Of a stretch of DNA of 37,756 bases, positions 1,784 through 27,317 are shown one piece after another; position 1 is the first letter of the stretch; each line of letters begins with the position of its first letter. The translations under genes were made by a program, and so were the position numbers. The notes beneath the pieces were generated by a model. The model did no database searches, was not told the DNA's origin, and saw only the letters and a program-made list of their open reading frames with translations. The stretch lies in the NCBI GenBank assembly GCA_900617105.1, contig UYFQ01000206.1, positions 1 through 37,756 on the forward strand. The letters run 5' to 3'. Source of the stretch: Hydrurus foetidus. Its lineage: Eukaryota.

Positions 1784-4691
1784 CTAGTTATAACCGGAGG
1801 TAAGGTTGGAATTGTAATACTCGTAACTGTGTCCGACTCTGCTTCTAGCATGAGTGGAACGTCCACGTGGTTTAATACCATGTTTGTGGATTGATTCAGT
1901 TTTTGTAATGAGTGAATTTTTTCATTTTGGATATTTTCCGGAGATTGGAAGAATTCCGGAATAATTTTAACCAAATTTAGTTTTTATAGTCTCCAATCCT
2001 AAGATTAAGTCGACTTTGGAATCTTCTGCAATTCGCACCGGAAGAGAAAAAGTGTATTTTAAACCGTTTTTGTTAAATGATACAACAATATCAAGCACAG
2101 CAGTGGATTCAATACATTGATTGTTTAGACCCGAACACATCCATATGGGAGAGTCGGTGGTGCGGAGTTGGGGTTCACCACGTAGGCCCCGAAGGACTCT
2201 ACGATTGATTACGTCCCCAACCTGACATCCGGTGTCGATTTGGGCTAAGGCGGCCATGCCGTTATTTTGGTCCATAGCTGGAGGAGGATTTGGGTGGGGA
2301 CCGGTCTCGATCGCGGCGATCTTTGTCTTTGTCCTTTTCCGCTTGGCGCGAGTCGTCTTTGCGGTTGGAGTCGCGGTCGCGGCTGTCAACTCGGTCGCCA
2401 AAGCGGTAGCCGGGGATTGGGTCTGAGGAAGATATATTTGTACTTGTAAGTAATCATCAATCTCGTTAGGTATGATTGTTGATAAAAGCATTTGCATGTT
2501 TGGCAAAATACGATTTTCTGAGATATTTTCCGCATACGGAATTTTGGACTCACGTTTTCCTTTGTACCCGCGGTCTTTGATGTCGCGAGTATCGCGATTT
2601 TCGTTGCGATCGGTGTCGCGATTGTCTTTGCGGTCGTTGTCGCGGTTGGACCGGTCGTTGTTGCGGTTGTTGTTGTTGTTGTTGTTGTTGTTTTGGCTTT
2701 GTTGTTGTTCTTGTTGTTGTTGTTGTTCTTGCGAGGGTCGTCTTTTGCAGCGGGACCCATGTCATTTTCGACGTCGTCTGTTGGGTAGACGTATGTTGCC
2801 GCGCCAGGATTGTTGGTTGTCCTGGTCATTTCGCCATTGAGTAGGACGTTTGGGACGAAATGGTCGTGGCCAATTCTCCTGAACTCTGTTGCCATCGTGG
2901 ATTGGCTCCACGTGCAGCACGTGTTGTTGCAATGAGGGTTCATGAAATTGCGACAATCGTAGCGATTGTGTCCTTGGCGACCGCAGGTGTGGCAATTATC
3001 GACTGTTTTGCTCAGACCTGGGTAGGCGTCGGATTCGCGTTTGGGTATCGTGCGGTAGGAGGCGGAGAGCTGCGTGATGTTGCTGGACGACAATGTGTCG
3101 GGAGTGATTTTGGTCTCGAAGTCGTAACGAAGACCACCCATGTTGGACGCGTTGATAACTGTTTGCCGAGCTTCACTGAGGCAGAGATTCATTCGGCACA
3201 ACATGTTTGGGATGGAATCCTTTTTGTTGTTTCTTGTTTTGTCCTTTGTAATGTTCATGAAGTTTTCAGTGAACTTATTATCAAGAGGGAGCTTTTTGTA
3301 GATGATCTTACAGATCTCATGTTGGCGGTCTGCAGGTATATTGTCGTAGCTGCCGTAGTATCCGAAGAGGATGTCTCGGAGTCGTGCAATTGCCGCCAAC
3401 TCTACGTTTGGGTTTTGCCATTTGATCTTCATTTGCCAGTTTTTCAGGGCAAGGTCCAAGTCATAGGTAGACTCTGTGGCGCGATCACTGAAGAAGAGTT
3501 TCTTGAGATCGGTTGCCATGTCGCGAATGGACAGGAGTTTGTCGTCGATGATGGGCCAGGTTTGACACATTTTGATTGTGTATCCGAGAGTCTTTCGATT
3601 TTGAAGCAGACTGTCTCGGATCACATGGACAGCTTCGTCTTCGATGAGATCCTTCCAAGGTGCATTAAACTGAGGGCGGTGCGCCTGTGTATAGAACTTT
3701 CGGGCTGTGCCGTCCATGTCCTTCAGTAATGTCTCACGTGTTACATAGAACACTTCCTTCATGTTGATGAGGGAGGTTGTGAGTGCTTGGGGTGTTCGTT
3801 GTTGTTCGAAGGTTGTGTCTGCCTCTTCGGTTTTGCGCTTGCGGTTTGAAGTGGCAGCCGCTTTCGTGGAAGCTGTCGCTGACTTCTTTGCAGCTGCTAC
3901 CGTTGCTTTGGACGTTTTGGATCTGGTAGCACGCGTGGGTTTGTCTTCAGATTGGACGGCAGAGAGTGGTTTTGCCTCCCTTGTTTTGGCAAGGGGTTTG
4001 ATTGGCATAGCCTTTTTCTTTTTCGGTTTTGGTGAAGGAGGAGTTGACGCTTCCGACTCACTTTGATCTTCCTCGTCTGATTTAGACTTTGCATCGTCGG
4101 GGTTGTTGCCTTCCTCTTCTTCCTCGTCATTGGGTTGTTCTTCTTCCGCCTCTTCCGAGGCGTTGTCAGACACCGAGATGTTATCATCGTCGGATAGGAT
4201 TTCCTTCGGAGATGTTTTGGTATCGATTTTGTCGTCGCCCTCTTCCGTTTGAGAAGGATTGATATCCTCTTCTTCTTCGGTTTGGGGTCGGATTGGAGAG
4301 CGCTCCTCATCTGACTGTGTAAGTCATTTGTCTCTTGCATCCAGGCTGACAAGTCTTTTAGTTCTTGATCTTCGAGATCAGATCTGTTGTCAGCCTGTTC
4401 TTGCAGCACTTCAAGTCGCATGCGGTTGCGTTTACGTTCTTGTTGTAGCTCCAGGAAGCGTGCTTCATTTGCCGCCTATTCGTCGGATATGCGCTTATGG
4501 GTGCTCGAGGCTTTGATAGCCGATTTGCCCAGCGTCTTCATAAAGTTGGCTATATTGTCTTCTCGAGCGAGACGCTCGAGTTTAGCCTTCTCTTTATCCG
4601 ATAGTAAGAGGATATTTTGGGGTTTGGAGCGTTTGGAATATGAGCTAGCGTCGCTAGAGCTCTCTTTCTTTGGTTTTTGGGCCTTAACCAT
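1784..4691 (-). pseudogene. gag: Gypsy gag-protease, broken by a stop and several 1-bp frameshifts
   Basis: ATG at 4691 (MVKAQKPKK), stop at 4476-4478. ORF pieces 3897-4421, 2386-4173 (CHTCGRQGHNRYDC knuckle) and 1967-2506 (aspartic protease IDTG...DLILG). At least two frameshifts fall in A-runs (~2690, ~1985). Confidence 0.85.
2655..2730 (-). repeat. (AAC)n trinucleotide repeat, poly-Asn tract in gag C-terminus
   Basis: Runs of (gtt)n on the plus strand. Confidence 0.9.
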
Positions 4692-5242: not shown

Positions 5243-5457
5243 GTGGCCTCACTAGGATCTGGGCACTGGGAGCGGGACGGCTGGGAGCTGGGGCAAGGGA
5301 AAGTGGGCTACGGGAGCTATCGCTATGAAACAATGTGGTTAGCTTACAGATAAACACAGCAGGTATCATGGCAATGAATCGGATGGATCGGATCGAGGAC
5401 GATCCGATCCGAACGTACGCCTGTACCCGTACAGCCCGTACGGGTGTGCGGGTCACA
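5242..5457 (-). repeat. 5' LTR of Gypsy 1 (216 bp)
   Basis: TGTGGCC...GGTCACA imperfect inverted termini, upstream of gag, interrupts Gypsy 2 gag. Partner LTR not in window. Confidence 0.8.
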
Positions 5458-7500
5458 CCATAAGTGAATCCTTCCATTCCAGATGGAGCTCATTGTTGGC
5501 ATCTGTATAAAACAGGACTGGACAGGCCGCTACTTTGTGTGTAGTATGGCTGCATGAACGACATGGAGGTAGGGGAATCATCGCGATTGGACCCTTCAAA
5601 AGAGCACGCTTTGTTACTCCAGCCGATATTAAGGGCTGGGATTGTGTATTAGGAATACCAGCTTGTTTTTCATAAACTGAAGCTGCGAAGGATCGTTGAT
5701 GAATCAACGGCACCAAAGGCATCATCACATTGTGTGTGGATTTGACAACTGAGTAATCAGAGGACCTCAGAGCAAGTTCATTGTCTGAGGTAATACTGCT
5801 ATATCGTGCAATATGCTCGTTTAGTTCGCGAACGGACGCAATGCACGCTACAAAGCGTGTGTAAGCATCCTCCCAAGTTTCACCATGAGTAGGATTTGCT
5901 TTCTTTCTCTCGAAATAATCAGTTCTCAATTGACTATCCGGTTTTAACTTTTTCTCAATCGTAACTATTAACGCAGCATGCTGCGCCTGAGTGATTGGTT
6001 CAACGATGGAGTAATCGTGTGTTAACGATTTCATCGCGATAAATGTTTGTCTTTCAAGTGCTCGATCAGAGAAGTTGAATCTAATAGGAATTTGTGAAAA
6101 ATTCTCTACTAGTGTTCTAGCAATGTCGGGTTTAGCACCAAAGTACTTTGTAACGATTTGGGCAGCCTGAGCGACTGTAACGTGTTCAAGCCACGTCGCA
6201 AATTTATCTTTCGTAAGAAACACTTGCAAAAGCAAGTCAATTGGGATCACTTGCAAAAGCAAATTGTATGATCTCAGTTGCAGGATAAACTATTAATTGA
6301 CTTAAAGTAAAGTTATTTGCAAAAGCATTCGCATTTCAAGGCTAATTCACCCGAAATTTTGAATGAATCGAGTACAACAAGTGCACTATTTAAGTTAATA
6401 CCACCAGACATGCGTGTATTAAAAAGGTTCTCAAGTTGTTGTGCTCTAGTAATAGTAGGCACAGGTGCAACTTGGGTTGTCACATCAGTTATAGCACTTA
6501 AAAGTGCTATTTGTGATGGATTTTTCTCCGATGATTGCTGTAAAGCACCGGGCTCGGCGAGAAATTCGTCAACGAGTTCGTTGTCACAGAGTTCAGCATA
6601 GTTAGAATCAACTATCTCACCTAACTCTTCGCCAAAGTCACCAGGACTGGAGTCAAACTGGTCAACTATGTCTTCCATGATGGAGGGTGATTTTGTCGCC
6701 AATTTCAAATTGGGTTTCAAGACTTTTGGCCCGGTCAAGGATGTTCTCCCTGCTGAGAGCGGAGTCGCTGCAGCACGCAGGAGGGCAATCTTCGACTTTC
6801 TCCTTGTCAAAGGAGCAATTCTATCGAGATTTCCTACTCGTAATGTAGGATTTCTGTTCGGAGCTTTTTCGAAAGGAAAAATGTCTTCCGGCACCTCGTT
6901 AGAAGCGGGAGTTGCTTCAACAGGACATAATCCCCGGATGTTTTTATCGCTAGGCTGAGAGCTTAGGCTTAAATTGGAGTTTAACTCCGAACTAAAGTGC
7001 GAGTTTTTTCTCGGCGCAGTTTCTGAAACTGAAACTGGGAATTCTATCAGGAAATCGTTGTCCAGCAACAAATTCCGCAAGGTTTGAGTTGCAAACCCTG
7101 TTTCACTGCTGACTAAAGTCGCAGGAGGCCCTGGGAAGGGTGTTCTCGATTTGGAAGTCGGTCTCCTAGGCTTAAAAGTTGCAGTCGCCGAATTGAATCG
7201 GGGTTGTGTTTGGCGTGTGGAAGGAGTGGAATGGAGATTAGAGGTGGCAAATCGCGATGAACTCGCGTCTTCCCGAAGGAGCACAGGTCTTACGACTCTG
7301 GAACGACTTCTCGGTTAAGGAATCGAAGTTTCAACGATAGTTGGGAGATTTTGGCCCGTCGAACCGACTGCTGCCTCTCCTTCTACGGGAGTTGTATCTC
7401 TCCGAAACTGGAGTTCTTCGTTGATAAGACGAAGCTCTTCAAGATAAAGACGACCTCTGAGGAGAGGAACTTTCTGGAAGTCCTCCACGGCGGGATTCGA
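5458..7500 (-). pseudogene. gag: Gypsy 2 gag, interrupted
   Basis: ORFs 6313-7284 and 5453-6262. CRSCSHTTHKVAAC..DANNELHLEWKDS parallels Gypsy 1 CHTCGRQGHNRYDC..HCNNTCCTWSQS. Cut at 5458 by the Gypsy 1 LTR. Confidence 0.7.
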
Positions 7501-9809: not shown

Positions 9810-9913
9810 TACAACGAAATACACATTTTCCGGAGAATACGGCTATACGTTTTGGTCTTTTCCTTCACAAAGAAATATTTCCGGATAAAAAAACCTTCAC
9901 GAACCCTTCACCT

Positions 9914-10243
9914 TGTTGACGGATCTTCGGTTCAGCCGACACGTACGTGGGTGAGTGTACAGCGGTTGAAGAACGCTCGGTCAAGGCTCGTGAAATAAGC
10001 TTTGGGTTGTCAGTAATCACTTGTTAATTGACTGTGCTTCATCCCTGCTGAAGTCCCCGAGTCCCTTTCAACGCAACAACAAAAGACATCCTACACTACT
10101 TCTTGAAGTACCGAGCCGAAGCACGGGTCCACACATCGTCGTCACGCATGCACGCACACACACACACACACTAATCCGTACGTCCGTACGAATGCATAAG
10201 TACACAGATTGTGTTCGTGTCATAAACTAAGATATCTCCAACA
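9914..10243 (-). repeat. Copia 3' LTR
   Basis: TGTTGACGG...CTCCAACA, direct repeat of 15175-15504. Preceded on the minus strand by a short purine-rich tract GGCATAGGGGTG (10244-10255). Confidence 0.95.
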
Positions 10244-10309
10244 CACCCCTATGCCACATCACAATCATCACTGTTCACGCATCACGCATAATTCTTCACA
10301 AGATAATGT

Positions 10310-11953
10310 CTAAACTACTGCCTCATCGTCCCAGCCCGTGAGCCCCTGTCTCTCGCACTTGAATTGTGTCCCCTGCAGCGGCTTCGTCAGAAGATTCGCG
10401 TACATTTCCTTGGTCCCGAGGTGCCTCACTCTCGCTTCCCCTTGATCTACTCTCTCCTTAAGCCAGAAGTACTTGATGGCTATGTGCCGGGTGCGCTCCG
10501 CCGCCGACCGTCCTCTTTCGATGAGCGACATGCATGACATGTTATCTTGGTACACGGTGACCGGACCGCACGCGTGTCCTTGCCCTATGATAAAATGTCT
10601 GACGTGTAATGCTTGGTTAGTGGAGTCAGATAGTGCCACCAGCTCCGCCTCCGTGCTCGACTTGGTCACGATCTGCTGCTTGGCTGACTTGCTATGCACC
10701 GCACCACGCTCTCCGATTACCACACAGCTCCCGGTGTGCGACTTCCCGTCTGCATGCACCCCATACGCTGCATCGATAAGTACACTCACTACGATCCCCT
10801 TACTCCCAGCTGCGAACACTAGCCCCCTGTCCCTCGTCGCGCTCACATACTTGAGCAGTCTGTCCAGCTTCACGAGGTCGTCTGATGTGCACCGAGTTAC
10901 CCGAGTCGCCAAATATGCCACCGCCGTCAGACAGTCCGGTCTTGCACGCTTCGCGAGGTACAGCATCTTCGCCACTAGGCGATGGAACTTGATACGCTGC
11001 TCCTCGGTGGCCATCTCTGCGTCCTCTCTCACTTCGAACAGTCCCTCTGTCGCCGGCGTCCTCGCACCCCCCTTCGCCTCGCTTTCCTTGAGCATGTCCT
11101 CCACGTAGCCGGTCATCGACACGCGTGCAACACCTGTGGTGGTAAGGTCGAACACCATGCCTAGGTAGTTTACTACAGGTCCATCCTTCCTAGTGATATC
11201 GCCGTACCTTCTTTTCAGCCCACTAGCCACTGACTCAATCATCGCACCATTCTTGCTAGTCACCAGTAGGTCATCCACATGTACGGCGATGGTGCACTGC
11301 ACCCCGTATTCGTCATGTTTGTTAAACACGCATATGTCGTGCGCATTCGGCACATACCCTAGTTCCGATAGGCTTACCCTCAGATTCTCGTACCATAGCG
11401 CCGCCGACTCCACACACCCGTACAGCGCTTTATCTAGTCGCACCACCACGCATCCTTTGTGGTCTGTGAACCGCGAGTATCCCGGTGACAGTCTGATCAT
11501 GATGTTCGACATGTTTCTGTCCAACCTCATATGTACAGGTAGTCCTGTTGTCATATCTGCGTTCAGGAAAGCACCGCTGATATCAATCACAGTGATGCTT
11601 CTCGTCTCGTGTGCTGCTATGCTTAGCAGAGTGAACACTGAACACGTCGCAACAGTAGGCGCGGATAGGTCATCATACAGGTCACGATCCTGCTGATCGC
11701 CTCCCGCGACGAGGCGTGCCTTCAGCTTCTCGAACTCACCACTCGCGAGGAACTTCTCCTTAAGGAACATACTCGACCTGATGATACGCCGCTTCTCGTC
11801 CGACGATAGCTCTTTCACGTCGACCGGTTCCCACACCTTTTTGTCAACCATTTGTCGTAACTCTTTCTCTATCACACTCACTGCAGCATCACCCCTTGTG
11901 CGCAGCGCTTCGTTCACCGAGATATTGAGCACGTAGTCGCCCCAGTCCGTACC
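10310..11953 (-). CDS. pol: Copia reverse transcriptase + RNase H
   Basis: KARLVAGG, DISGAFL, LDKALYG, VHVDDLL; RNase H IDAAYG, SSTEAE, YQDN, NLLTKPL. Confidence 0.95.
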   Translation of the reverse strand, partial: GTDWGDYVLNISVNEALRTRGDAAVSVIEKELRQMVDKKVWEPVDVKELSSDEKRRIIRSSMFLKEKFLASGEFEKLKARLVAGGDQQDRDLYDDLSAPTVATCSVFTLLSIAAHETRSITVIDISGAFLNADMTTGLPVHMRLDRNMSNIMIRLSPGYSRFTDHKGCVVVRLDKALYGCVESAALWYENLRVSLSELGYVPNAHDICVFNKHDEYGVQCTIAVHVDDLLVTSKNGAMIESVASGLKRRYGDITRKDGPVVNYLGMVFDLTTTGVARVSMTGYVEDMLKESEAKGGARTPATEGLFEVREDAEMATEEQRIKFHRLVAKMLYLAKRARPDCLTAVAYLATRVTRCTSDDLVKLDRLLKYVSATRDRGLVFAAGSKGIVVSVLIDAAYGVHADGKSHTGSCVVIGERGAVHSKSAKQQIVTKSSTEAELVALSDSTNQALHVRHFIIGQGHACGPVTVYQDNMSCMSLIERGRSAAERTRHIAIKYFWLKERVDQGEARVRHLGTKEMYANLLTKPLQGTQFKCERQGLTGWDDEAVV

Positions 11954-12183
11954 ACACAAATGAATCTGGAATTGTCGATGAGAGAGGAGTACCGGTAGAC
12001 TATGCAGCGGCAAGCGGCGAGTGGGACGACCACACTGATTCGAGGGATGCACTGAGTGGTGCGAATGAGTCACAACCGGCGTATGCGAGTCCTCAACGGT
12101 ACGGACTGAATAAGCATGCAGTGATAGATTTCTTCAGGAACGGAAAAGGGACAGCGCTGCTGACGCGCAACTACGACGGAGAC
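11954..12183 (+). other. 230-bp inverted segment of Copia pol (IN-RT linker)
   Basis: Flipping it yields a stop-free in-frame join SMNG-HTNESGIVDE...ALLTRNYDGD-GTDWGDYVLN and removes the TGA at 12134-12136. Confidence 0.85.
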
Positions 12184-14015
12184 GGCCGTTCATGCTGGCT
12201 ATCAGGTCGTCCATTGCGTGGTCGGACTCAGTATCGTGTGCATGATGTGTTGGTTCACTATGATGCTCGCTTATGTCTAGCTGATTCGGCTCGTACAGTG
12301 TCTCACCGCTATCGTACTGCTGATCCCGGTAGTCACCCCCGTTTTCAACCGGTTCACCCCCACTGTCCGGTCTCTCGTCTATCGCTTCCCCATGCTCATC
12401 TCCGTCTAGCGGTAATATGGATGGGTCTACACCGTCGTTCACCGTAGGCTCGATCGTGTCTGGTAGATTCCCCCTAGAGTCTCCGTCCTGTTTGTACGAC
12501 AACGGTCGCTCGTACAGCTCACCTTTACCTTTCACACGCCCGTCTGCTAGCGCAAGTTCGTTAAGCCTCTTGATTACCGATTCTGGCATCGGTAATATTC
12601 TAAATTGGTCTCTATTCACCAGTCGTCCAGTACTCAGAGAGAGCATTCTCACGGACCCTGTACGGTTGCCAAGCGGGAGCATCACCACGCAGTCTTCTGT
12701 GCGACTCCCTAGTCCTGCATCTGTGTTTGGTACGGTACACTGCGCGTAGTCGCCAAACGAACAACGAAAATCTCGCTTACCATCCGGCTTCCTTCCTATA
12801 AATGCCTCGCGGGGACTTGGGCCGTATCCCCGTAAACCGGCCGGTTCGTAGTTCAGCCTAGATATACAGTACAGTACACACATGGCTATACCCACGGTCG
12901 ACAGGGTGAACGGCAGGTGGTACGCTACGTGAGCCCGTACCCTTTCTTTAATAACTCTTATTCTTCTCTCGATTCTAGCCACGTGACCCCCAGCTCCGCT
13001 CACGTCGACTTCAACTCCGAGTTTTCCCAACTCGTCGACAAGGCTGGTGACCGCCCCCTCTCCGTCGCTCATGATGATGGACGTCCGAAAGTTTTGAGAC
13101 GCGAGGACACCGAGGAAATGGTTGATGCCGATCTTGACTTGCCCTGCTGTCCTCGCCGGCTTCTTTAGATCAGCTGTGTTAAGACTGTATGCGATAGTTA
13201 GTCCTAACGGAGTAGCCACCCCAACTAGAATAGCTAATTTCTCTATAAACATAATGTCAATCGATAACACCTGATCCCGTTGTAAGATTTTTGTGCTCAC
13301 GGTTATATCGGCGACGGCTGTAGCTCTCTTCGTTGTTTTACCCTTCAGCGATGCGATGTCCTTCCCCCATATCGCGTCTGCGATCTGGAAGTCTCTTGCT
13401 GTCACGTCAAAATTGCTCCCGCTATTGACGATTGACATCGCCTGTTCTACCGTCGGGAATCCCATTCTGGCCAGTAGCTCGCGGGCACGCCTGCCCTGCT
13501 CTATTTCGCGTTTCGTAAATGCCTTTAAATTCTCGACTACTGTCGTGACAAGTGCGCTCCCGCACTCCATCTCTCTCCAATCACAGGAATAGAATCTTCC
13601 CTCGCTCCCAACGACACGCTTTCTTCCGAAGCGATAGATCCTCGTGCTTCCCTTCGGCTGGAGAGTGAAGCAGTCGCTCAGGTGGTCGTACCGAATCGAC
13701 GCCCCTGAGTCGACTTGGGAAGCAAATGACAGAATATTTGCTGAGGCTGAACCGCTGTAGTACACCGTCCCAAATTCGCCGAACTCTCCTTCCCGATCGA
13801 CTGACACTCCCGCTCCCTGTTGAATTCCGCTCACTTTTATTGTTCTCTCGGACTTTCTAACGTCGGTAAGCAAATCAGGATTGCTGAATATATTTAGTGA
13901 CGCCTCGTTGTCTAGTAGCACGTCAAATCGCGAGAAGCAGCACACTTCGTCTGCAGCCACAAGTGCTACTCCCCACTCGCTCGATTCACCTTCGTACTCC
14001 TCGTCCGACTCCCCG
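12184..14015 (-). CDS. pol: Copia protease + integrase
   Basis: VLLDNEASLNIF protease motif; DDE core SIDIMF / SDGEG / IERRIR; SPREAF..KPD..FG motif. Confidence 0.9.
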
Positions 14016-15150
14016 TCGTGACGTGGACTTTTTCCGATGACGATTTCTTTTGTGGGCAATCCCTTGCGTAGTGCCCTTTAGTTTCACACTTGTAACACTC
14101 CACATCCGCTATTGATTTCTTACTGCCCCCTCCGGCTTTCCCCGCTTTCTTCTCGGCCGGGTCCTTGGTCATAGTGACATGTGCACCTTCGGCAACGTAC
14201 GCCGCGTTCGCACCCGCAGGTGTCGGAGTGGGTGTATGGACGGGCACTCGGTCATTCCACTCTGACGAGATGTGGAATGCTAGGGCGAGCGTGGTGGGGA
14301 ACGCACCCGGTTTGCGCCGTAGCGCGTCGTGCTTCATATCGTCCAACATGACCTTGTACCGACGGGTGTCGAGTTTCCCTAGGAAGTCCAATGCTCGCTT
14401 TGACTCCGACACTGCGGCGATCCCCACGGCTGCGTTCGCTGTTACCTGTTCATCAAATCTGTTCTTGAAGGTGACGATATGTTCCCTCTCACCTTGCCTC
14501 ATTGACCCGTACTTACTCTCCTGTTCGTGTTGGTTGTACTCTTGCAGTGACTCGTCTCCACCGTACATGTGTGTGAGGTGGGTTCTTCTGATGAGTGTCC
14601 ACAGCAGAACACAATCCAGGGTGTCATACGCGGTCTTGAACTCTTCCTCCTCCCTCACCCTACTCTGCGATAGTAGCGACATACGCTTCCACATCATGGG
14701 GTACATTGTACGTTCGTTCTCACGTTGCGTTTTGACATCTCTCTTCCTCTGAATATAATCATCCTCCTTAAACTTCGCTCTCGAACGTTCCGACGCTTTT
14801 CGTCTTCTCTCGTTTCTCGCCAGTCTGGCGGCGACACGAGCAGGTTTCGCAGCAGCGTACGCTACGGCCTCTGGGTCAGGTGCTGGCTGTGGTTGATCGT
14901 CGCCCCCGTCGTCGTCGTCCTCATCCGAGCTGGAGCTCTCCGACGACGAATCCGCAGGGTAATCCCTGTATGAAATTCTCGGGAGCTCATATCTCACGTT
15001 GGTGGAGAAGAACATGCCCACTATCCCGTATAGCTCGGTTACTACCGTCTGCATGTGTTCTCTCCATCTTATGATGTTGTTGTGTTTGCCGTATTGAAGC
15101 GTACACTCCTCTGTACTTTTGAAAGCTTCTGCGGCGCGTTTGGGAGGCAT
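13966..15150 (-). CDS. gag: Copia gag with CCHC zinc knuckle
   Basis: ATG at 15150 (MPPKRAAE), MRQGERE motif, CYKCETKGHYARDC. One base out of frame with pol near 14012. Confidence 0.9.
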   Translation of the reverse strand: MPPKRAAEAFKSTEECTLQYGKHNNIIRWREHMQTVVTELYGIVGMFFSTNVRYELPRISYRDYPADSSSESSSSDEDDDDGGDDQPQPAPDPEAVAYAAAKPARVAARLARNERRRKASERSRAKFKEDDYIQRKRDVKTQRENERTMYPMMWKRMSLLSQSRVREEEEFKTAYDTLDCVLLWTLIRRTHLTHMYGGDESLQEYNQHEQESKYGSMRQGEREHIVTFKNRFDEQVTANAAVGIAAVSESKRALDFLGKLDTRRYKVMLDDMKHDALRRKPGAFPTTLALAFHISSEWNDRVPVHTPTPTPAGANAAYVAEGAHVTMTKDPAEKKAGKAGGGSKKSIADVECYKCETKGHYARDCPQKKSSSEKVHVTTGSRTRSTKVNRASGE

Positions 15151-15174
15151 TGGAATGCCTGCTCCAGTCAATTA

Positions 15175-15504
15175 TGTTGACGGATCTTCGGTTCAGCCGA
15201 CACGTACGTGGGTGAGTGTACAGCGGTTGAAGAACGCTCGGTCAAGGCTCGTGAAATAAGCTTTGGGTTGTCAGTAATCACTTGTTAATTGACTGTGCTT
15301 CATCCCTGCTGAAGTCCCCGAGTCCCTTTCAATGCAACAACAAAAGACATCCTACACTACTTCTTGAAGTACCGAGCCGAAGCACGGGTCCACACATCGT
15401 CGTCACGCATGCACGCACACACACACACACACTAATCCGTACGTCCGTACGAATGCATAAGTACACAGATTGTGTTCGTGTCATAAACTAAGATATCTCC
15501 AACA
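15175..15504 (-). repeat. Copia 5' LTR
   Basis: Direct repeat of 9914-10243, followed by TSD CACCT. Confidence 0.95.
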
Positions 15505-15768
15505 CACCTTCCCTTCGTTCTGCCTGTGGAAACTTCACAGAATTTGAAAAATCGATTGATTCAAAGAGTCCCAACTCTGAGCTGTGAAGAGTTCTTTCAA
15601 ACTGGAGAAACGAGATCGATCGGAGAAGAACCCATCATAAAGTGATCACGAAGTCGATAGCGTATACCAGTGCAAATGTTGTTTTCGGGTGGGAGTGTTT
15701 TGGAATGCAAATTTTGACGGAGTTACAATTATCAAGTGAGATCATGATATTTTGATCTTTTCTGCACG

Positions 15769-17685
15769 ATGCAAAGTAGCCTCACTGGCGCAGAGCATTT
15801 CGGAGATGACAATGATATGGAGTCGTACGATGATGAGACAGAAATGACTGAGGACGAGTATCAGCAGCAATTATTCAGGAGAGAGGACATGACGATCGCT
15901 GACTTGCCAGATAGTGAGAGAGAAAAAGTCTCCCGTCTCGTTGATAAGCTTGTATCTCTAGGTAGAGAGCACGAAGGGCTTCTCGCCGATCTCGCCTACG
16001 AGCGGTCAAAGTGCACTGAAGAGGCGATGAGCTACACTCGAAAGCTGCAGAAGAGCTCTCAAGATTTCGAGCTGGAGAAACAGCTGATGAGAGAACAAAT
16101 GACTGAGCTGCAAAGTAAGCACCGATCAGGACTCAGATTGCTGCACCTCTACCAAGTCTCATTGGAAAACTTCCTGAGGGATAACTGTGCCCTGAAGGAT
16201 GCCCTCCTTGCGAGAACGAAGAACACCAACGGAGATTCCGACTCGGCCGATGTGAATAACACCAGAGAACTAGACAGTGCGAAGGCACTTGAGATGAAAT
16301 CTGCGATTGAAAGATTGGAGGCGCTGTCAAGCAGCCAGCAAGCTATGATGGAAATTGTGCAGTCAGATAATAGGACATTGACCGCTGACCATGAAGGCAT
16401 AAAAGTGGAACTTCAGGCAGCTGTGAACAATTTGAAATTGTCCGATGATATGCTTGTTAATTGCAGAAAACATTTAGAAGCAGCACTTCTCTCACAGTCA
16501 GACAATATTCAGCAGCAGCGAGACGCATCGACAATGGAGGTGGCGTGCGAAGGCATGGCGAGACAATTAGCTGAGATGTTCGTCAGAGCAGAGGAGAGGG
16601 ACAGGGAGATAGAAATGTACAAGCAGAGCAGTCGATCTGGGTCACTGTTGCACTCTAAGATGCATTCGTCAATTGATGGAGGATCATATGTGGCGCCTTA
16701 CTTGCAAAGAGAATCAGATCAATCGGATATTGATGCTTTGAGGAACTCGGATCCAAGATCTTCTCAACACAGTAGAGGCGAAGGAAGAATGATAACATAT
16801 AATTCTCGTGAAGAACATACCGGCAGTCGTGCTTACCCTCAACATGAAAATATGCACATTTGCGGCGACCATGATGACAACAACGAAATGAATGGACCTC
16901 CGCAGGCTATGAACAAAGAGCACCGAAGCAGACAATCACCCCGCACAGACACAAACACAGATAGAGAAACAGACAGAGGCAGGTCGCTTACTGTAAAGAA
17001 TGAAAAGGAGCGAGGGATGGACATGACACCGTTGCAATCCACATCAATAGAGCGCTCATCAGCTATCAGCAACGAGAACAGCAGAGTTGACAGGAGGATG
17101 AACAGAGTTGCTCATGAGGGATACGAAGGGAGAAGGGACAGAGTGACTGCACTAGACAACTCTCTCTCCTCTTCAACAGCCATGTCGGTGCGGTTCAGTC
17201 AGTCCTTGTTGCAGCCACATGATCTTCAGGGAGATCGGAGGGGGGGAGGACAATATGATGATCATGCAAATCATCGAGAAACTTCAACTCCAACCTCACG
17301 TTCGACTTGGGCTGAGAAAAGGCAAACACCTTCTTCTTCTTCAGCTGTGAGGACTTCTCAATCGATGACCCCCAAGACACATTCCCATGACCATCCCTAC
17401 TCCACCTCCTCTACATCGTACAGAAAACCTCTTCCTGTCTACATCGGTTCATCCACCAACGGCTCCGTGCTGACAACAAAGGGAATGACGAACCACACCC
17501 AATCAATCAATGCGACTCGAGGCAGAGCGAAGGAAAAACGGGGACGAAATCAGAGTGTGGAGGAAACGAAGTCGGAGAAGAAGGAAAGAGGTCTGCTCTC
17601 TTTCGACTGTGCGAGGGATGGGTATGACTCTCAATTATTCGACCTGCTGGACAGCATAGAAACGAACGGTCAGGGGAGGCACTGA
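15769..17685 (+). CDS. Coiled-coil protein, hinderin/KIAA1328-like N-terminal region, long low-complexity C-terminus
   Basis: Intact 638-aa ORF. TIADLPDSEREKVSRLVDKL...ELQSKHRSGLRLLHLYQVSL resembles, from memory, the KIAA1328 conserved block (LKDL..EDKRRIANLIKEL...LLSLYQKYL). ORF is confident, family is tentative. Confidence 0.55.
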   Translation: MQSSLTGAEHFGDDNDMESYDDETEMTEDEYQQQLFRREDMTIADLPDSEREKVSRLVDKLVSLGREHEGLLADLAYERSKCTEEAMSYTRKLQKSSQDFELEKQLMREQMTELQSKHRSGLRLLHLYQVSLENFLRDNCALKDALLARTKNTNGDSDSADVNNTRELDSAKALEMKSAIERLEALSSSQQAMMEIVQSDNRTLTADHEGIKVELQAAVNNLKLSDDMLVNCRKHLEAALLSQSDNIQQQRDASTMEVACEGMARQLAEMFVRAEERDREIEMYKQSSRSGSLLHSKMHSSIDGGSYVAPYLQRESDQSDIDALRNSDPRSSQHSRGEGRMITYNSREEHTGSRAYPQHENMHICGDHDDNNEMNGPPQAMNKEHRSRQSPRTDTNTDRETDRGRSLTVKNEKERGMDMTPLQSTSIERSSAISNENSRVDRRMNRVAHEGYEGRRDRVTALDNSLSSSTAMSVRFSQSLLQPHDLQGDRRGGGQYDDHANHRETSTPTSRSTWAEKRQTPSSSSAVRTSQSMTPKTHSHDHPYSTSSTSYRKPLPVYIGSSTNGSVLTTKGMTNHTQSINATRGRAKEKRGRNQSVEETKSEKKERGLLSFDCARDGYDSQLFDLLDSIETNGQGRH

Positions 17686-19148: not shown

Positions 19149-19368
19149 GGCGTGTCGGTTGCAAAAATTGCGCGGCGAAGTCCAAAATCCGCAGTGTACA
19201 GTAATCTCGATGGTCGATCACACTCGCGCATCGCACATATCACTCTCAAACTACACCAATATCGCTGCTGCGACAGTAGAAATTTTTGTGCTACAACAAG
19301 GACAGTCTCAGCAAACTGTCGTGATATTTTTCTACTGGACCCCAGCATCGAATCTAGTCAATTTGCCC
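19149..19368 (+). repeat. Left TIR (220 bp)
   Basis: Reverse complement of 29056-29275, about 4 mismatches by eye. Confidence 0.95.
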
Positions 19369-19410
19369 ATCGCCGTGCTGTCTCTCAATACAGCATTGAT
19401 CTGTAAAAGG

Positions 19411-21332
19411 ATGGGCATCAAGGATCTTTCGAAGCAGTTGCGAGTCTCCAACAAAGCCACTTCAAAGTTATCGGATTTGAAGGACCAAATTCTGGGCGTT
19501 GATGCACCTATCTGGCTGAACAGAGCTATTTTCAGCTCTCCCGAAATTTGTCATGGTTTTCATCAGGAACCGAAAGTGAGCCTAGCGTATATTATTGACA
19601 TGTACATGGACTCTCTGCTGTCAATATTCGAAGCAAACAGTATAAAGTTACTTTTTGTACTCGATGGCGCAAGGAATCCTCTGAAAAAGGACACGAATAT
19701 AGCTCGGGAAAAAAAAAACGACGACGCTTACATTGAAATGGAGAATTTGATAAAAACCAACGATACAGAGAATGTAAAAAGAATTAATCAGTTAAAGAAG
19801 CAAGCTCTATATGTAAGAGAAGACATCGTCGCTGGGTTCGTTGCCTGGTGCATCAGAAAGGATCTAAAATTTGTCTGTGCTTTGATGGAAGCCGAATGAG
19901 AGCTATGTAGACTGGAAAGCGACGGAGTTATCGATGGAATTCTGTCTGATGACTCTGATTGCCTAGTCTTAGGCTGCAAACTTGCTGTCCAGCTTCTTGA
20001 GAAGAATGCTGATCCTATGGGATTGAATTGCTCGTTCGTGCAAGGGTCCCGTTGGTACGACTTCGTCAGTAACGAAGTAATCGATCAGCCAACTATACCG
20101 GAGCTATCGGAATTAGCCGTACTTATGGGTTGTGACTATCTTGATAGAGCCTATGGCAATACAATCTTTAAAAAATTAAGACATTTTTTTCTAGATGGAG
20201 GAGCGATCGGGACATAATTCTGGGCGAAATAGAAACCAAAGGGCAAGTTGGAGGGAAAAGAATGCGTGCTGGCTTGGTGGGATACAAACAGAATTTTGAT
20301 TATGCTGCCAACATATTCCAGTTTGCGCCGTGTTTCGTCGTTAGGAGTCGGCATTTAGAGGTCACAGCACGAGATTCTTTCTGGTCGAATAGCTATGACG
20401 TAGTTAGGGGAAATCTAAGATCACTGCCCCCTGATTCCTGTGAGAGGTCTTTGTTTGGATTCGATCCCGACGATCACATACCGAATGACATAATCCAGTG
20501 TGATTTATTTACTGCTACAATTTGGATCAGAACATTATTACCATTCGAGAAACATATCATACCTCCCCCAAGAAATTCCGAGAACCAGATTTTACCCTGG
20601 GGTTGTTATCTAGATTTCGAAAAAGTTCCAGTTCCTATGCAACCGACAAGGGCACTCATCTGCTATTTGAAATGTCGCGGACTATCACCTAGAGCATCTA
20701 ATACAATGCTCTAAATTAATTCTGCTGTCGAAAGAGTGATAAATCAAGGCAATAGGGCTCCAGCAATAATCCCTTCCACAAATGACGAAGCTGCTGGTCA
20801 CTACGTAAATCTATAAGTGCTCACTTGCGGAGAGACGCTTATTTGGCTAAATGCTAGCGAGGATGTGTTTCGGCTGCTGAAAGATTTGACAGTGAAGTTC
20901 AATGATACGTTTATTGACGAAAGTTTTGGTGTAGGGAGAAATGGAGTTAGAGAACGTGCGTGGGGGAGGGTAAATGCAGGTCATTTTGATTTAAGTACTC
21001 CAAGATCATGTGAATGCAAATGTAGAGGTAGAGACGGTATTGTTAATGTTCGTATATTTAGTATACAATGTACTCCATCAATGAAAAAAGATGCCTATAT
21101 CGTGCACTTAATTTTGGCAAAAGACGGTGATACCTTTATGCCTGGACCAGCTAGCCGTTGCAATTGCCCTGTAGGTAGGCTATTTTGCAGTCACCTTTTG
21201 GCTTTCATAGTTTTGATGGGAATGATTCAGATGCTCAATGAGAGTGAAGACTATGATTGGTTTACTAACAATATGCCTGAACTCGTCAAATCTCTACACT
21301 CATCATGCATTCCATTTGCTTATGTTTTTTAA
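19411..21332 (+). pseudogene. EXO1/XPG/FEN1-family 5' nuclease fused to SAP-like and SWIM zinc-finger motifs; premature stops and frameshifts
   Basis: MGIKDL..ILGVDAPIWL (XPG-N), FVLDGARNPLK, ALMEAE*ELCRL..DGILSDDSDCLVLGC (XPG-I), LAVLMGCDYL (H3TH), LICYLKCRGLS (SAP-like), SRCNCPVGRLFCSHLLA (SWIM CxCxnCxH). Confidence 0.88.
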
Positions 21333-21726: not shown

Positions 21727-21730
21727 GTGT

Positions 21731-21927
21731 TATAGCTCGGGATGGGAAAGGAAGAGGCGGAAGACTAGGAGTGGTAGTTAGTTACAGCTAGGAAGCTAGA
21801 AGCTAGGGTTAACTTCTACGTGGAGGCTGTAAGTGGCTACGACGATACAACAGACTGTAGTGTACGGTGGGTAGTGTACCGTAGTACTATCCGGTAGGAT
21901 CGGGACCTTGGACCCGGAACTACCACA
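21731..21927 (-). repeat. Gypsy 3 3' LTR
   Basis: Direct repeat of 27121-27317; element-sense termini TGTGGT...GCTATA. Confidence 0.95.
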
Positions 21928-21952
21928 CTACCCCCACTTATCCTTCTTTCTC
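21928..21952 (-). other. Polypurine tract
   Basis: GAGAAAGAAGGATAAGTGGGGGTAG immediately 5' of the 3' LTR on the minus strand. Confidence 0.85.
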
Positions 21953-22287
21953 AAAGAAAATCTAAACTACACTAAACTATGGCGAAACCCCCGTTTCTAT
22001 GTTTAAAAATAACAATATTTAACATAAATTATAACGGAAAACGATAACCAAAAAAATATGTACAATATTTTTTAAAAAATGTGAAATTATATACAAAAGA
22101 AATTACAAAGGGGTTTCGGAAATGGTGAGAAAGATAAGGATAAGGGAGTATGTACAAAACAGAATCGTTCTGTTGTACGAGGGTCAAACGTAATTATGTC
22201 AGATTTTTACTGACTAAAAAACCATAAAAATCCCTCGTGAGGGCAAAAATTAGGCCAAAAAATCTTCAAAAGATATTACGTTTGAGC

Positions 22288-22413
22288 TCAAACCTCGGTG
22301 GTTGATCCCTCAATATTCCTGGGAACAAAACGTGACATGTTATTGTTCCTCAGGTATGCATGGAGTGCATCACAGAGCCGGAGATTCTTCCGAGGCTCCC
22401 ATGTATTATGTGA
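22288..22413 (-). pseudogene. C-terminal remnant of integrase chromodomain
   Basis: Manual translation SHNTWEPRKNLRLCDALHAYLRNNNMSRFVP...; NTWEP..NL is the chromodomain signature. Confidence 0.8.
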
Positions 22414-22416
22414 GTG

Positions 22417-22806
22417 TGTTCTTGTTTTACCAAGACATACGACCCTATTGGAAACACTGTCAAACCGGATGTTGACTTCTTGTGTTTTTCATCACATTTA
22501 CGAAGTGAGTCGATTGCTGCATCGAGGACTTTGTCCTGTGTTTCGATTAAATCAGCAATATATGTTGAATTTGATGATGATACCAAAGGATACAACACGG
22601 AAAGGGCCTTTCCATTTAGTGTGTAATCGAGTTGGAGGATGTTCTTGTTTTACCAAGACATACGACCCTATAGGGAGCACTGTCAAACCGGATGTCGACT
22701 CTTTGTGTTTTTCATCACATTTCTGAAGTGAGTCAATTGCTGCATCGAGGACTTTGTCCTGTATCTCGATTAAATCAGCAATGTATGTTGAATTTGAAGA
22801 TGATAC
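22417..22806. repeat. 167-bp direct duplication (22417-22583 / 22640-22806), about 92% identical
   Basis: Offset 223 bp, about 13 substitutions counted by eye. Confidence 0.9.
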
Positions 22807-25800
22807 TATCGGTAACAAATGAGGTGTTAAAATCCCTCTATTCAAATCAAGTTTATCCGCGAATAGGATAGATGCTGGACTTGCACCCGTACGTTTATTA
22901 ACTGAACTATTTATAATTCGTTGTACGAACGGAATGCATTTTGCATAATGGACAAGAGACGGTGTATCGAACACCAGTCCTTTTAAATGTCTATTTATCT
23001 CTTTATTGACTCGTTCAACAATCGCATTCTCTTGAGAGGAGTAAGCTAGAGTGAGGTTATGGGGCGTACCCGTAAGATCTAAGAACTCTTTTATGAGATC
23101 ATTAGCGAAATGGGATCCACGATCCGATCTTATCATGTTTGGCGAACCGAATCGACCAAAATGTGTTAATAAATTCTCCGCTGCAGATTCGGCAGTAGCG
23201 TCCTTACACCAGAACATTTCTGTCCATCTGGAGAAGGTGTCAATTATGACGAGAATATACCCCTTATCGGGAAAAGGACCCACATAATCAATATTCAACG
23301 TATCGAAAATTGCGTGAGTAGAAGTTGAAAAATGGGCTGCATTGATTTTCGCATCAACCGCACTTAGTTTTTGACAACAAGGACAGTTCCGTATGTATGA
23401 ACGTACGTGCTGTTTCATATTTTTCCACACTTGGTTTAGACTGTAAAGTCGAGTGAGGGTTCGGTCGACACCGTTGTGACCCACAATTGCATTGTGGCAC
23501 ATCTGGATATGAAGTATTTGTTCATCTGTGGCCGGTTCGATAACCGTTAAAGCCGCCACACTTGTGGAAGAAGATGAAGATGATGATGAACAACCATCTC
23601 TGACAATTGTCAATGGTAGAGCAATTTCAGTAAGATTTGGACATAAACGTGATAGCGCATCGGCTAATTCGTTATCAGATCCTTTAACAAAATGAACGGT
23701 GAAATCGAGTTCTTGCATTGCAATGAACCACCGTGCTACCATCGAAGTAGGGTTTTGTTTCATATATGTCAAATTCATATGATCAGTATGAATAGTGAAT
23801 TTTCTATCTCGGATAAGGTAATCCAATTGTTGGCAGCAATAAAAGATAGCGTAAGCCTCCTTTTGTATTGTTGACCAATTAATCTGAGATGCAGATAGAG
23901 ATTTGCTAATAAAAGCGATTGGCTTCCATTCGTCATTAATGACTTGGAATAATACACCACCGATTCCATAATCAGATGCATCAGTATATAATCTGATGGG
24001 TGAAGTTTCATCGATGAAATACATCAATGGACAACGAGATACAGCGATCTTTGTCTCATTGAATGCGTTTGTCCCCTCGAGGGTCCAAAAAATTGGAGAG
24101 CGTTTAACCGCCTTTGGGTCCACCATCATGTGAAGTGGTTTTACCATTTCTGAGTGAAAAGGAACGAATTGACGGAAATAATTGGCTAAGCCAAGGAATC
24201 CCCGTAATGCCGTAACTTCTTTTGGAAGTGGAAAGTTGAGTACTGTCTCAATCTTTTCTTTCGACATGGATAAACCATCTTTGTCGATGACTCGTCCGAC
24301 GTATTCGATACGTTTAAGACCGAATCGGCATTTCTTTGCTTTGAGTTTAAGATTTTTAAGTCTAAATCTCTCAAAGACTTTCCTCAAGTTCAAAAGAAAC
24401 TCTGCTTCGCCCCGGCCATATACAATGCAATCGTCGAGATACATCTCGCAACAGCTGTATATGAGACCGTGAAGGACCGTTGTCACCATCTGCTCTTGAA
24501 AGTAAGAGGGGGCACGACAAGGGCCAAAAGGCAATCTTGTGAATTGAAACACCCCCATGAAACATATAAATGCCGTATAGATTCGGTGGGGTGTATATAA
24601 GGGAGCTTGATGGTAACCCGCGGTTAAATCCATCACCCCATAAATATCCGGTTTTCGATTACCGATCCTCTCAAAGAGGTGTTTGATATTTGGTAGTGGA
24701 AAGGAGGCCGGCTCAATGCATTCATTGAGTGCTCGATAATCGATGCAGGTTCGATATGTATCGGCTGTCTTATTTACCATTACAGGATGACTGTAGTATG
24801 CAGCGTTCGACCTCTCGATCACACCATCTTCCAACATCTCTTCGATAGAAGTGCGGAGATAATGTTCCTTTTTAGAGGATTGGGGTCGCACTGGTGCGTG
24901 GTTCGATGGAACCTCCCATTTCTGCCGTGGCAGGTTTATCTCAAACGGCTTGAGGTCAGCAGCTTGCGGAGCTAGCTTATCACTGAATATATCAGCGAAT
25001 TCAGAACAGAGAGTACGGAGATCGTTTTGAAGGCTTTCATCTCCTTCAAAATGAATCTGAGACAAGAAATCATCCGGCCCATTGGGCGGTACATTCCGGC
25101 ACGTCTTGTCACGCAAGAAAGGTGCGAAGGTATCAGTTTTATCATCGTCAATCTCGTCAACGGAGAGTGCGACACCGCTTGGCCATATGGCTTCCGCGTC
25201 ATAGTCTGATGTAACAGTGTCCCCAGAGGTATGTGTGAGGATGGGAATCGAGTCACCATCTAGGTGCGGGGTATCACCCGTACGTTTCGCGAGTACAGTC
25301 GAGACACTGTCCAGTCGCTCACAACCCACATCACCACATGGACTTTGGGTCGCGACTCCCTTGGTACCATCCTGGGTAACGTTACACGTGAACGTTGTAT
25401 GACAACCTGACCCTACGACTTCCTTGGTTAGAGGTGCGTGCAGAATGGCCTTCTTAGGTGTTGGCTTTGGGCAGAGACCGTATGGTTCTTTCCGATCCGA
25501 AAGTCTTGCTTTGGTGATACCCTTTAACATATCGTATGTAGGTGTAATCGACTCTACTTCCGGTTCTTCGGGTATGAAACCCTCAGATATCACACGTCTG
25601 GTGTATTTGTGCCAGTGAAGCGGGTCAAGCTTGGCTATCGCTTCCCTTTCTTCAAACTCGAGCCAACGAGCATCACACTTTCTTTTGTTCTCGGCACTAA
25701 GCTCGGGAGAAATGCCAAAAGCAGAAGGTGTTAATGACATAAAATCATATTTGTTTACAGTTTTACGACTTAACAAAAATTCGATAACCGTGTTCCTATT

Positions 25801-25809
25801 AACTCGCAA
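22552..25809 (-). CDS. pol: Gypsy pol: protease tail, RT, RNase H, integrase (1085 aa, N-truncated)
   Basis: IDYRALN, DLTAGYHQ, YLDDCIV, TDASDYGIG, ADALSR, HHCC (H-NAIVGH...CPCC), DYVGP/SDRGSHF/VERVN, KWKGPF. Confidence 0.97.
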   Translation of the reverse strand: MRVNRNTVIEFLLSRKTVNKYDFMSLTPSAFGISPELSAENKRKCDARWLEFEEREAIAKLDPLHWHKYTRRVISEGFIPEEPEVESITPTYDMLKGITKARLSDRKEPYGLCPKPTPKKAILHAPLTKEVVGSGCHTTFTCNVTQDGTKGVATQSPCGDVGCERLDSVSTVLAKRTGDTPHLDGDSIPILTHTSGDTVTSDYDAEAIWPSGVALSVDEIDDDKTDTFAPFLRDKTCRNVPPNGPDDFLSQIHFEGDESLQNDLRTLCSEFADIFSDKLAPQAADLKPFEINLPRQKWEVPSNHAPVRPQSSKKEHYLRTSIEEMLEDGVIERSNAAYYSHPVMVNKTADTYRTCIDYRALNECIEPASFPLPNIKHLFERIGNRKPDIYGVMDLTAGYHQAPLYTPHRIYTAFICFMGVFQFTRLPFGPCRAPSYFQEQMVTTVLHGLIYSCCEMYLDDCIVYGRGEAEFLLNLRKVFERFRLKNLKLKAKKCRFGLKRIEYVGRVIDKDGLSMSKEKIETVLNFPLPKEVTALRGFLGLANYFRQFVPFHSEMVKPLHMMVDPKAVKRSPIFWTLEGTNAFNETKIAVSRCPLMYFIDETSPIRLYTDASDYGIGGVLFQVINDEWKPIAFISKSLSASQINWSTIQKEAYAIFYCCQQLDYLIRDRKFTIHTDHMNLTYMKQNPTSMVARWFIAMQELDFTVHFVKGSDNELADALSRLCPNLTEIALPLTIVRDGCSSSSSSSSTSVAALTVIEPATDEQILHIQMCHNAIVGHNGVDRTLTRLYSLNQVWKNMKQHVRSYIRNCPCCQKLSAVDAKINAAHFSTSTHAIFDTLNIDYVGPFPDKGYILVIIDTFSRWTEMFWCKDATAESAAENLLTHFGRFGSPNMIRSDRGSHFANDLIKEFLDLTGTPHNLTLAYSSQENAIVERVNKEINRHLKGLVFDTPSLVHYAKCIPFVQRIINSSVNKRTGASPASILFADKLDLNRGILTPHLLPIVSSSNSTYIADLIEIQDKVLDAAIDSLQKCDEKHKESTSGLTVLPIGSYVLVKQEHPPTRLHTKWKGPFRVVSFGIIIKFNIYC

Positions 25810-27109
25810 GGTTAACGGGATAGTATGACATTCGACCTCATAAGAGGTGAATCATATAAATAGGATCGAACGTACGAGAGCCTATTGAATTCAATGTATT
25901 CCCGCGGAATATTGGTTTGTTTCGCTTTAGCACTGAGCTTTAAGCAACATGAAACCAAAGACTGTGAGGCGAAGCCATTCCACTTTTGAGTATTGCCTTG
26001 CAATTTGTTATCAGCATTATACTCGATAAGTACCTTGTTCAGTTTTTTTTTTTTAAAAAAAAAATGTTTGTATGCAATCGTCAATTCTGACGTTGATTTG
26101 ATGAAATTACATTCTGAAGAAGAATCTTTAAATCTGCAAAATGACATCTTATTTTGCAAATATACTAAACGATGACCCACCCCTATCGGGAGTCGAACCC
26201 CGAATATTGTGTGGGTGTAGAATCTGTCAAGATATTATTTTAATTCCTCAAGATATCACTAACGCGCGCGATTCAAGTGTTCTGAATGTGCGATTCATGT
26301 TACCATGACGAAAGTGCATCTAGCGAGAGGTTTTGACCTTATTTAGGTGAAAAACTGATGAAAATCAGTCGCAAACTACGATGTCGCGCTGAGTCCATAA
26401 CTCTGCATGATGATATCGCTTTTATCGAGTAATCGTTGCAAACGATTCTCTAGGATATGAGAGACAATTATGCAGAGGGGCGATCGTGTCCGCCTCCGAT
26501 TTCTCTGTGTATCTGCTGTCAAAAGACAAGCAGAAATCACCTGCTGACACAATGATATATCTCTTCGGAGAAATATGATTGTAACTCATCGAAGACAGAA
26601 GCCCCTCGTCAAAAAAATTTGCGAGAGCTTCGCCTCGTTCGCGTATCGGGTACTTTACGCAAGTAACAGCGAATGAAAGAATTTCAACCCACTCTTGTCG
26701 AGAAAAATTCTATGGCGTGAAAGCCGAATTTTGGGTGATCGAAAATTTTGTGTCCTGTTAAGGATGAAGGAAGAACTTCCTGTCGACCAAAAGACGTCCT
26801 TAGACTAATCTGATGTCGCTAGCAGTGGAACCGGTGTCCAAATTGCTATTGAAGAACTCCTTAATTTCGAGTTGGGAAGCCTCTCGCGACTTCGACCAAA
26901 AACGAACTTTTGAAGACACCTTTCGGAGGGTTTCAAGCAGGAAGCGGCTACGCCAAACTCCTGTAAACTTAAACTAAGTTCTCGGAGCTTCGGGCTCAAC
27001 GAGAAAACGACTCCTCGGAAGTCGTGGAGTGAATCTACTCCTTTGGAAGTCTATCTAAAGTTTGGGACGAGTAGAAAGGTAGAGAAAGAAGCGAAGAAGG
27101 ATGAGCGGG

Positions 27110-27121
27110 AATAGCGCTATT
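27110..27121. other. Perfect 12-bp palindrome AATAGCGCTATT at PBS position of Gypsy 3
   Basis: Read directly. The LTR boundary here is independently fixed by LTR-LTR identity and the TSD. Confidence 0.9.
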
Positions 27122-27317
27122 ATAGCTCGGGATGGGAAAGGAAGAGGCGGAAGACTAGGAGTGGTAGTTAGTTACAGCTAGGAAGCTAGAAGCTAGGGTT
27201 AACTTCTACGTGGAGGCTGTAAGTGGCTACGACGATACAACAGACTGTAGTGTACGGTGGGTAGTGTACCGTAGTACTATCCGGTAGGATCGGGACCTTG
27301 GACCCGGAACTACCACA
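27121..27317 (-). repeat. Gypsy 3 5' LTR
   Basis: Direct repeat of 21731-21927, followed by TSD GTGT. Confidence 0.95.

Follow-up and report, generated by a model that had tools for sequence, protein, structure and literature searches.

Organization of the Copia-type element

The window analysed here is a stretch of 37,756 nucleotides, corresponding to positions 1 to 37,756 of contig UYFQ01000206.1 in the Hydrurus foetidus assembly GCA_900617105.1. An LTR retrotransposon lies on its minus strand (Table 1). The two 330-bp LTRs of this element differ by a single A/G mismatch, located at LTR position 172. They have TG...CA termini, the 5′ LTR ending in ...CCGTCAACA at position 15175, and the whole element is flanked by a 5-bp target-site duplication that was read directly. 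From its sequence, the purine-rich tract ATAGGGGTG is likely to be the plus-strand primer site. The junction at the start of the 3′ LTR, GGGGTG/TGTTG or AGGTG/TGTTG (here and below, a slash marks an LTR boundary), is common to three of the related loci described below, L001, L004 and L003.

The gag and pol reading frames differ. In the window copy, the frame is broken between gag and pol near 14011-14017, a break that is not found in single-ORF relatives, and pol carries an in-frame stop at 12134-12136. Because of the frame break and of the stop, the window copy is defective. Judged by its sequence, the element is a young but defective LTR retrotransposon of the Ty1/Copia type. The RVT_2 match of its reverse transcriptase was also obtained with the relatives P0177 and P0184 and with the ORF of locus L003. 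At the position of the putative protease (about 13900-13870, minus strand), pol reads LLDNEAS, and relatives read DNQAS in the alignment. Other Copia elements have DSG or DTG at the protease active-site motif. A Pfam search of the pol region between gag and the reverse transcriptase gave no protease match. No further copies or fragments of the element were found elsewhere in the window.

Table 1. Features of the Copia-type element and of its paired arms (window coordinates)
Feature	Position	Strand	Remarks
Target-site duplication AGGTG, 5′ side	15505..15509	-	read directly
5′ LTR	15175..15504	-	330 bp, TGTTGG...GTCAACA; direct repeat of 9914-10243
LTR-internal arm CAGTCAATTA	15286..15295	-	predicted self-primer and putative start of R
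Primer-binding arm TAATTGACTG	15165..15174	-	from the first base after the LTR onward, no spacer
Palindrome AGGCATTCCAATGCCT over the gag start codon	15145..15160	-	predicted 6-bp hairpin
gag	13966..15150	-	one CCHC zinc knuckle; ORF and domain search
pol reading frame	10310..14059	-	protease-like, integrase, reverse transcriptase, RNase H; frame differs from gag
Integrase region	12380..13558	-	invariant D, D, E; retroviral-integrase fold
Reverse transcriptase	11078..11767	-	Pfam RVT_2 (PF07727), Ty1/Copia type, E 5.7e-25
Purine-rich tract ATAGGGGTG	10244..10252	-	directly before the 3′ LTR
LTR-internal arm CAGTCAATTA, 3′ LTR copy	10025..10034	-	same 10-mer
3′ LTR	9914..10243	-	direct repeat of the 5′ LTR
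Target-site duplication AGGTG, 3′ side	9909..9913	-	5-bp partner of 15505-15509

The integrase of the lineage

Neither the integrase region of the window copy nor that of three relatives gave an rve match in Pfam, and the stretch between gag and the reverse transcriptase had no match in the PDB by sequence. An alignment of 100 sequences was used to build an AlphaFold model, which reached a pLDDT of 88.7; an earlier model from a 5-sequence alignment (pLDDT 35.7) was discarded. Foldseek placed the model with the RSV, PFV, MVV and HIV integrases, with E values of about 1e-9 and a probability of 1.00. The residues D, D and E are invariant in the 100 aligned sequences, with spacings of 64 and 32 residues. 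An integrase fold with its D, D, E residues is thus encoded upstream of the reverse transcriptase, which is the Copia arrangement. The N-terminal helical part of the window integrase contains no His or Cys, so that the usual zinc-binding HHCC motif is missing.

The reverse transcriptase region had 1009 relatives, the protease-integrase region 4310 and gag 56. Among the best 120 of the 1009 reverse transcriptase relatives, identity ranged from 51 to 94%, and these 120 carried generic labels (hypothetical protein, reverse transcriptase) or none at all. The same holds for the labels of the listed gag relatives.

Pairing of the post-LTR bases with the LTR

A preliminary description of the locus, made from the sequence alone, had drawn attention to the ten bases that follow the 5′ LTR and to an exact complement of these bases inside the LTR. 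This complementarity was borne out: positions 15174-15165 pair with 15295-15286. The duplex is exactly 10 bp long, and the flanking base on either side adds nothing to it. The complement had been placed about 120 nt from the LTR 3′ end, and it indeed occupies LTR nucleotides 210-219, 121 nt from that end. The estimate that such a match would arise by chance less than once in 1000 holds as well, since shuffling the LTR 20,000 times with its dinucleotides preserved produced a match of at least 10 nt at offset 0 in only 6 cases. When offsets 0-8 were allowed, the count was 19 of 20,000. Within the window, CAGTCAATTA was seen 4 times as compared to 0.15 expected, and 3 of the 4 occurrences belong to the Copia-type element. 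The fourth, at 28634-28625, was taken as a chance occurrence: its surroundings are unrelated and the ORF downstream is not gag-like.

Other statements about the LTR-gag junction fared less uniformly. The absence of TGG after the LTR is not strictly true, as a TGG is found at 15166-15164, 8 nt past the LTR and overlapping the 3′ end of the 10-mer. A local stem spanning the junction had also been proposed; its two halves, GTCAA (15181-15177) and TTGAC (15171-15167), are present, but the stem is missing from both the minimum-energy and the centroid folds. Absent from the predicted folds, and with its register lost in L003, this stem was not counted as a feature. In contrast, the palindrome covering the gag start codon (AGGCATT and AATGCCT around a CC) was recovered as described, with the ATG at 15150-15148, 24 nt past the LTR. 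A sister family keeps GGCAT..ATGCC at the gag start with a different loop, as read at a loose contig end at 15150.

In the predicted folds of the window element and of loci L001, L004 and L005, a stem between the two arms closes the R-U5 region, in the minimum-energy as well as in the centroid structure. Reading the sequence by eye upstream of 15295 revealed no TATA-like motif. No tRNA gene was found within the window, and an Rfam search returned only two sub-threshold matches attributable to chance.

Variation within the family

Variation within the window's own family was studied using contigs from public runs, derived from one organism and from sediment, freshwater and air metagenomes; none of the 22 runs retrieved was an RNA run. 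In run X1 the family is multi-copy, with a summed contig depth of about 123 on the flank and of about 20,000 in gag, which gives a rough gag to flank ratio of about 160x. No substitution was observed in either 10-mer among the 40 variant rows with the best support, out of 71. Immediately beyond the primer-binding arm, positions 15161-15164 vary in 34%, 58%, 49% and 37% of the summed depth in X1. Conservation therefore stops where complementarity stops. The variable positions include a G of the TGG, so the TGG is not maintained among copies. A tRNA 3′-end site starting at this TGG is unlikely.

The sister family gave further information on the arms. Its primer-site arm reads TAATTTGACTG and is followed by a different leader (3 contigs, X9). 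LTR variants of the sister form read CAGTCAAATTA, which contains one extra base (insertion rows at 15288; 4 contigs, X12). The one-base insertions in the two sister arms match each other, these arms being carried by separate, unlinked contigs.

Depth is uneven along the LTR. In every run examined, two LTR blocks, 15276-15339 and 15436-15499, show 10-20x the summed depth of U5, the primer site and gag. The former consists of the LTR-internal arm and the upstream 40 nt, and its summed depth, the highest along the LTR, reaches 390,000-490,000 in X1; the latter corresponds to the first 60 nt of the LTR. It seems that only these two blocks are shared by a much larger set of LTR variants, solo LTRs or non-autonomous relatives.

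Pairing in distant relatives

More distant relatives were sought with an integrase profile built from 5 sequences, which was run against JGI metagenome contigs. Ten loci were retrieved, with 23-33% identity over the best segment. The LTR-gag junction could be read in five of them, L001 to L005, which represent three further families. The other five, L006-L010, contain no ORF of at least 250 aa in the standard code, except for a 305-aa ORF in L009. Scans of viral contigs with the gag-start 23-mer, and of genome and viral contigs with a 20-mer of the LTR core, gave 0 matches, and integrase-profile scans of viral and genome contigs yielded no confirmed relative.

Whether relatives keep the complementarity had been named as a check on the preliminary description, and they do: all five readable junctions pair, through an arm of 11-14 nt at offset 0 and with different letters. 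When the 70 nt preceding the ATG were compared for inverted matches, the longest one was, in every readable locus, the arm that begins right after the CA of the LTR. The LTR-internal partner lies 77-174 nt upstream, and the arm sequences are unrelated between families. In L001 and L004, the junction reads ...CCAACA/TTTTAAAATTAAAG, followed by G and the ATG, and the partner CTTTAATTTTAAAA is found 108 nt upstream. This pairing amounts to 14 bp and was equalled in 0 of 1000 shuffles for each locus. The junction of L005 and L002 reads ...TCTACA/CAATTAGATTAT, with the partner ATAATCTAATTG 77 nt upstream; its 12 bp were equalled in 3 of 1000 shuffles for L005 and in 0 of 1000 for L002. In L003, the junction ...TCAACA/TAATTTAGTTG pairs over 11 bp with CAACTAAATTA in the 3′ LTR, at a distance of 174 nt from the start of the arm to the LTR end. 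Only 7 of the 11 nt of this partner are retained in the 5′ LTR copy of L003, so full pairing is obtained with the 3′ LTR copy alone. The pairing in L003 was identified by visual comparison with the 3′ LTR; the script, applied to the disrupted 5′ copy only, had found nothing. The LTR ends of L001, L002, L004 and L005 were inferred from one LTR copy and from shared end motifs. Including the window, the comparison set is small, with 6 junctions from 4 families. An arm starting at offset 0 was seen in 6 of 6 junctions, in L003 by reading.

L003 shares with the window the landmarks GGTG/TGTTG, GATGAAG, AATTAACAAG and TCAACA/TAATT. As compared to the sister form CAGTCAAATTA, it shows three transitions per arm, all of which are compensatory, and no pair is broken.

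A Tc1/mariner element occupies positions 25-1647 of L003, with a DDE_3 transposase ORF at 313-1440, inverted-repeat arms of 41 nt (25-65 and 1607-1647) and flanking TA. It sits at a TA inside the self-primer arm of the 5′ LTR copy, and the 25 nt beyond it are neither U3 nor other LTR sequence. Given a Tc1/mariner element at the breakpoint and a far flank other than U3, it is ambiguous how the truncation in L003 arose. The start of this 5′ LTR copy 4-5 nt into the arm was considered as a hint of the RNA start and was rejected.

A model for self-priming and its alternatives

To our knowledge, self-priming has been demonstrated experimentally only in Tf1-type (Gypsy) elements. We consider it likely that the window element likewise primes minus-strand DNA synthesis with the 5′ end of its own RNA. 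According to this model, transcription of the full-length RNA would begin at 15295 or no more than one or two bases away, so that the RNA would carry CAGUCAAUUA at its 5′ terminus. By looping back across the 111 nt of R-U5, the terminus would anneal to UAAUUGACUG. The RNase H of the element would then, as in Tf1, cleave behind this duplex and expose a 3′-OH, whose extension through U5 and R would produce the minus-strand strong-stop DNA. With no spacer between the arm and U5, the right end of the LTR would be set by the primer junction. Should the primer be copied in plus-strand synthesis, as happens with tRNA primers, each cycle would regenerate the primer-binding site from the primer, and the joint change of the two arms would be accounted for. 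The arm architecture of the four families fits what Tf1-type self-priming requires, as far as can be judged from sequences.

Could the arms instead make up a long-range RNA stem that is conserved for a different function, for example packaging, dimerisation, control of gag translation or masking of the primer site, priming being left to a different primer? Retroelement leaders carry functional stems around the primer site, and Tf1 reportedly has a U5-IR-like stem-loop. The folds predict the stem and are silent on its role, and the start and the cleavage of the RNA are themselves predictions. However, no alternative primer site is visible. In L001, the gap between the LTR and the ATG is 15 nt long and 14 of these belong to the arm, so that a tRNA site of its own could not be accommodated. 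In addition, the bases past the window arm vary among copies. Finally, the strict start at offset 0 is needed by a primer site but not by a mere structural stem. A purely structural role of the arms thus appears unlikely to us.

Priming by a host tRNA would make the LTR match incidental. The tRNA could act either through its 3′ end, at TGGAGCAGGCAT (8 nt past the LTR), or through an internal half-tRNA fragment, a mode of priming known from copia and Ty5. The TGG of the window and a TGG at the end of the arm in L003 speak for such a primer, as does the typical use of half-tRNA primers by several Copia lineages (PMC6317226). Nevertheless, variation at the end of the window TGG and at the three bases after it amounts to 34-58% of the X1 summed depth whereas the 10-mer is constant, the sister family reads TGT at the position of the TGG, and TGG is absent between the LTR and the ATG in L001/L004 and in L005/L002. 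Above all, a single conserved tRNA cannot account for four unrelated arms, each of which abuts U5 and is matched by the LTR of its own element. We therefore hold tRNA priming to be quite improbable. As for a chance inverted repeat, a single 10-mer is short and many features had been scanned in the preliminary description; against this stand the shuffling results in the window and the fact that three further families show the pairing in the same place (0-3 of 1000 shuffles each). Coincidence is accordingly given hardly any credit.

The self-priming model may be extended beyond the window element. In this broader and more tentative version, which we regard as possible without favouring it, a whole, deeply diverged Copia lineage would have abandoned tRNA primers and would self-prime, with an origin separate from those of the plant TAR lineage and of Tf1/sushi, and its arms would drift together through the rewriting of the primer-binding site in each cycle, resulting in arms of 10-14 nt that are unrelated in sequence between sister families. 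The same tentative version would also take in the abundance of the lineage in freshwater and sediment and its Pfam-invisible integrase devoid of the N-terminal zinc-binding residues.

Comparison with known systems

In Tf1 and Tf2 of Schizosaccharomyces pombe, and more generally in Tf1/sushi elements, the primer-binding site after the LTR pairs with the element's own R and not with a tRNA, an arrangement paralleled in the window, where the paired LTR site is the predicted start of R. The arms in the window lineage are 10-14 nt long. Tf1/sushi elements are Ty3/gypsy chromoviruses with the order reverse transcriptase, RNase H, integrase and with a chromodomain, whereas the window element has its integrase before the reverse transcriptase, an RVT_2 domain and no chromodomain match. 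On sequence grounds, the window element is one that would work like Tf1 and yet is not a member of the Tf1/sushi clade.

Within Ty1/copia, self-priming has been predicted for 89% of 203 elements of the plant TAR lineage, as stated in the part of Neumann 2019 (PMC6317226) used here. The criterion given there requires complementarity to the 5′ LTR over 10 bp or more, beginning 0-5 bp after this LTR. The same source cites a self-priming proposal for the TAR elements Houba and Osr-1. Self-priming in Copia is thus already in print and is not new for this group. The window element, with 10 bp starting directly after the LTR, falls under the published operational definition; the likeness to TAR is at the level of this criterion. 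TAR is a plant lineage, whereas the relatives of the window element come from freshwater, sediment and air metagenomes and have an integrase without Pfam rve match.

Fungal GalEa elements are also of the Copia type and also have a conserved pairing where a tRNA site would be. The portion of PMC5445492 used here describes a Conserved Hairpin Site in place of a tRNA-type primer site: the first 9 nt are palindromic with the last A of the LTR, the partner lies 12-41 bp downstream, and no complement was found in the LTR. In contrast, ATAATTGACT of the window is not palindromic, and its partner is 121 nt upstream, inside the LTR. Osser, Bryco, Gymco-II and Bianca are Copia lineages primed by half-tRNAs, with primer sites that do not start with TGG, again as given in the part of PMC6317226 used here. 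In these lineages, the site matches internal tRNA-Met or tRNA-Ile sequences and is conserved across families, according to the same part of that source, whereas the site of the window lineage differs between families and co-varies with the LTR. The CoDi elements of diatoms, compared by description only, are, like the window element, Copia elements of aquatic protists with TG/CA LTRs; LTR lengths of 153-844 bp and element lengths of 5.2-8.1 kb are given in the part of Maumus 2009 (PMC2806351) used here. In the main text of that article, tRNA, priming and primer-binding sites all go unmentioned. A full-text literature search found no description of self-priming in a non-plant Copia lineage.

In Copia, self-priming has so far been a sequence-based prediction for one plant lineage. 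The data presented here point to a second, environmentally abundant Copia lineage with the same architecture, in which the two arms have changed in a paired manner across four families. This evidence adds weight to the idea that tRNA primers were abandoned on repeated occasions. In practice, annotation pipelines that require a tRNA-type primer site would miss or misjudge such elements, and the post-LTR bases should be tested against the LTR instead.

Other features of the window

A second LTR element, of the Ty3/Gypsy type, is found at 21730-27317 on the minus strand. It has RVT_1, RNase H and integrase domains, the latter with H2C2, and an ORF at 25809-22552. Its direct repeats of about 198 bp end in ...CTATAA rather than CA and are followed by TAGCGCTATTCC, without TGG. 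The same test as for the Copia-type element showed no LTR complement of at least 5 nt at offsets 0-8 in this Gypsy element. Another Gypsy-type ORF, with reverse transcriptase and RNase H, runs off the start of the window (1-1732, minus strand). Long ORFs without Pfam match are located at 2386-4173, 5453-7284, 15769-17685, 29410-31071 and 36382-37632. The assembly is considered mixed because two other pieces of it are Brevundimonas-like. On the plus strand of the window, an ORF at 19159-19896 carries an XPG_N nuclease domain (FEN1/asteroid-like) and is probably a host gene fragment.
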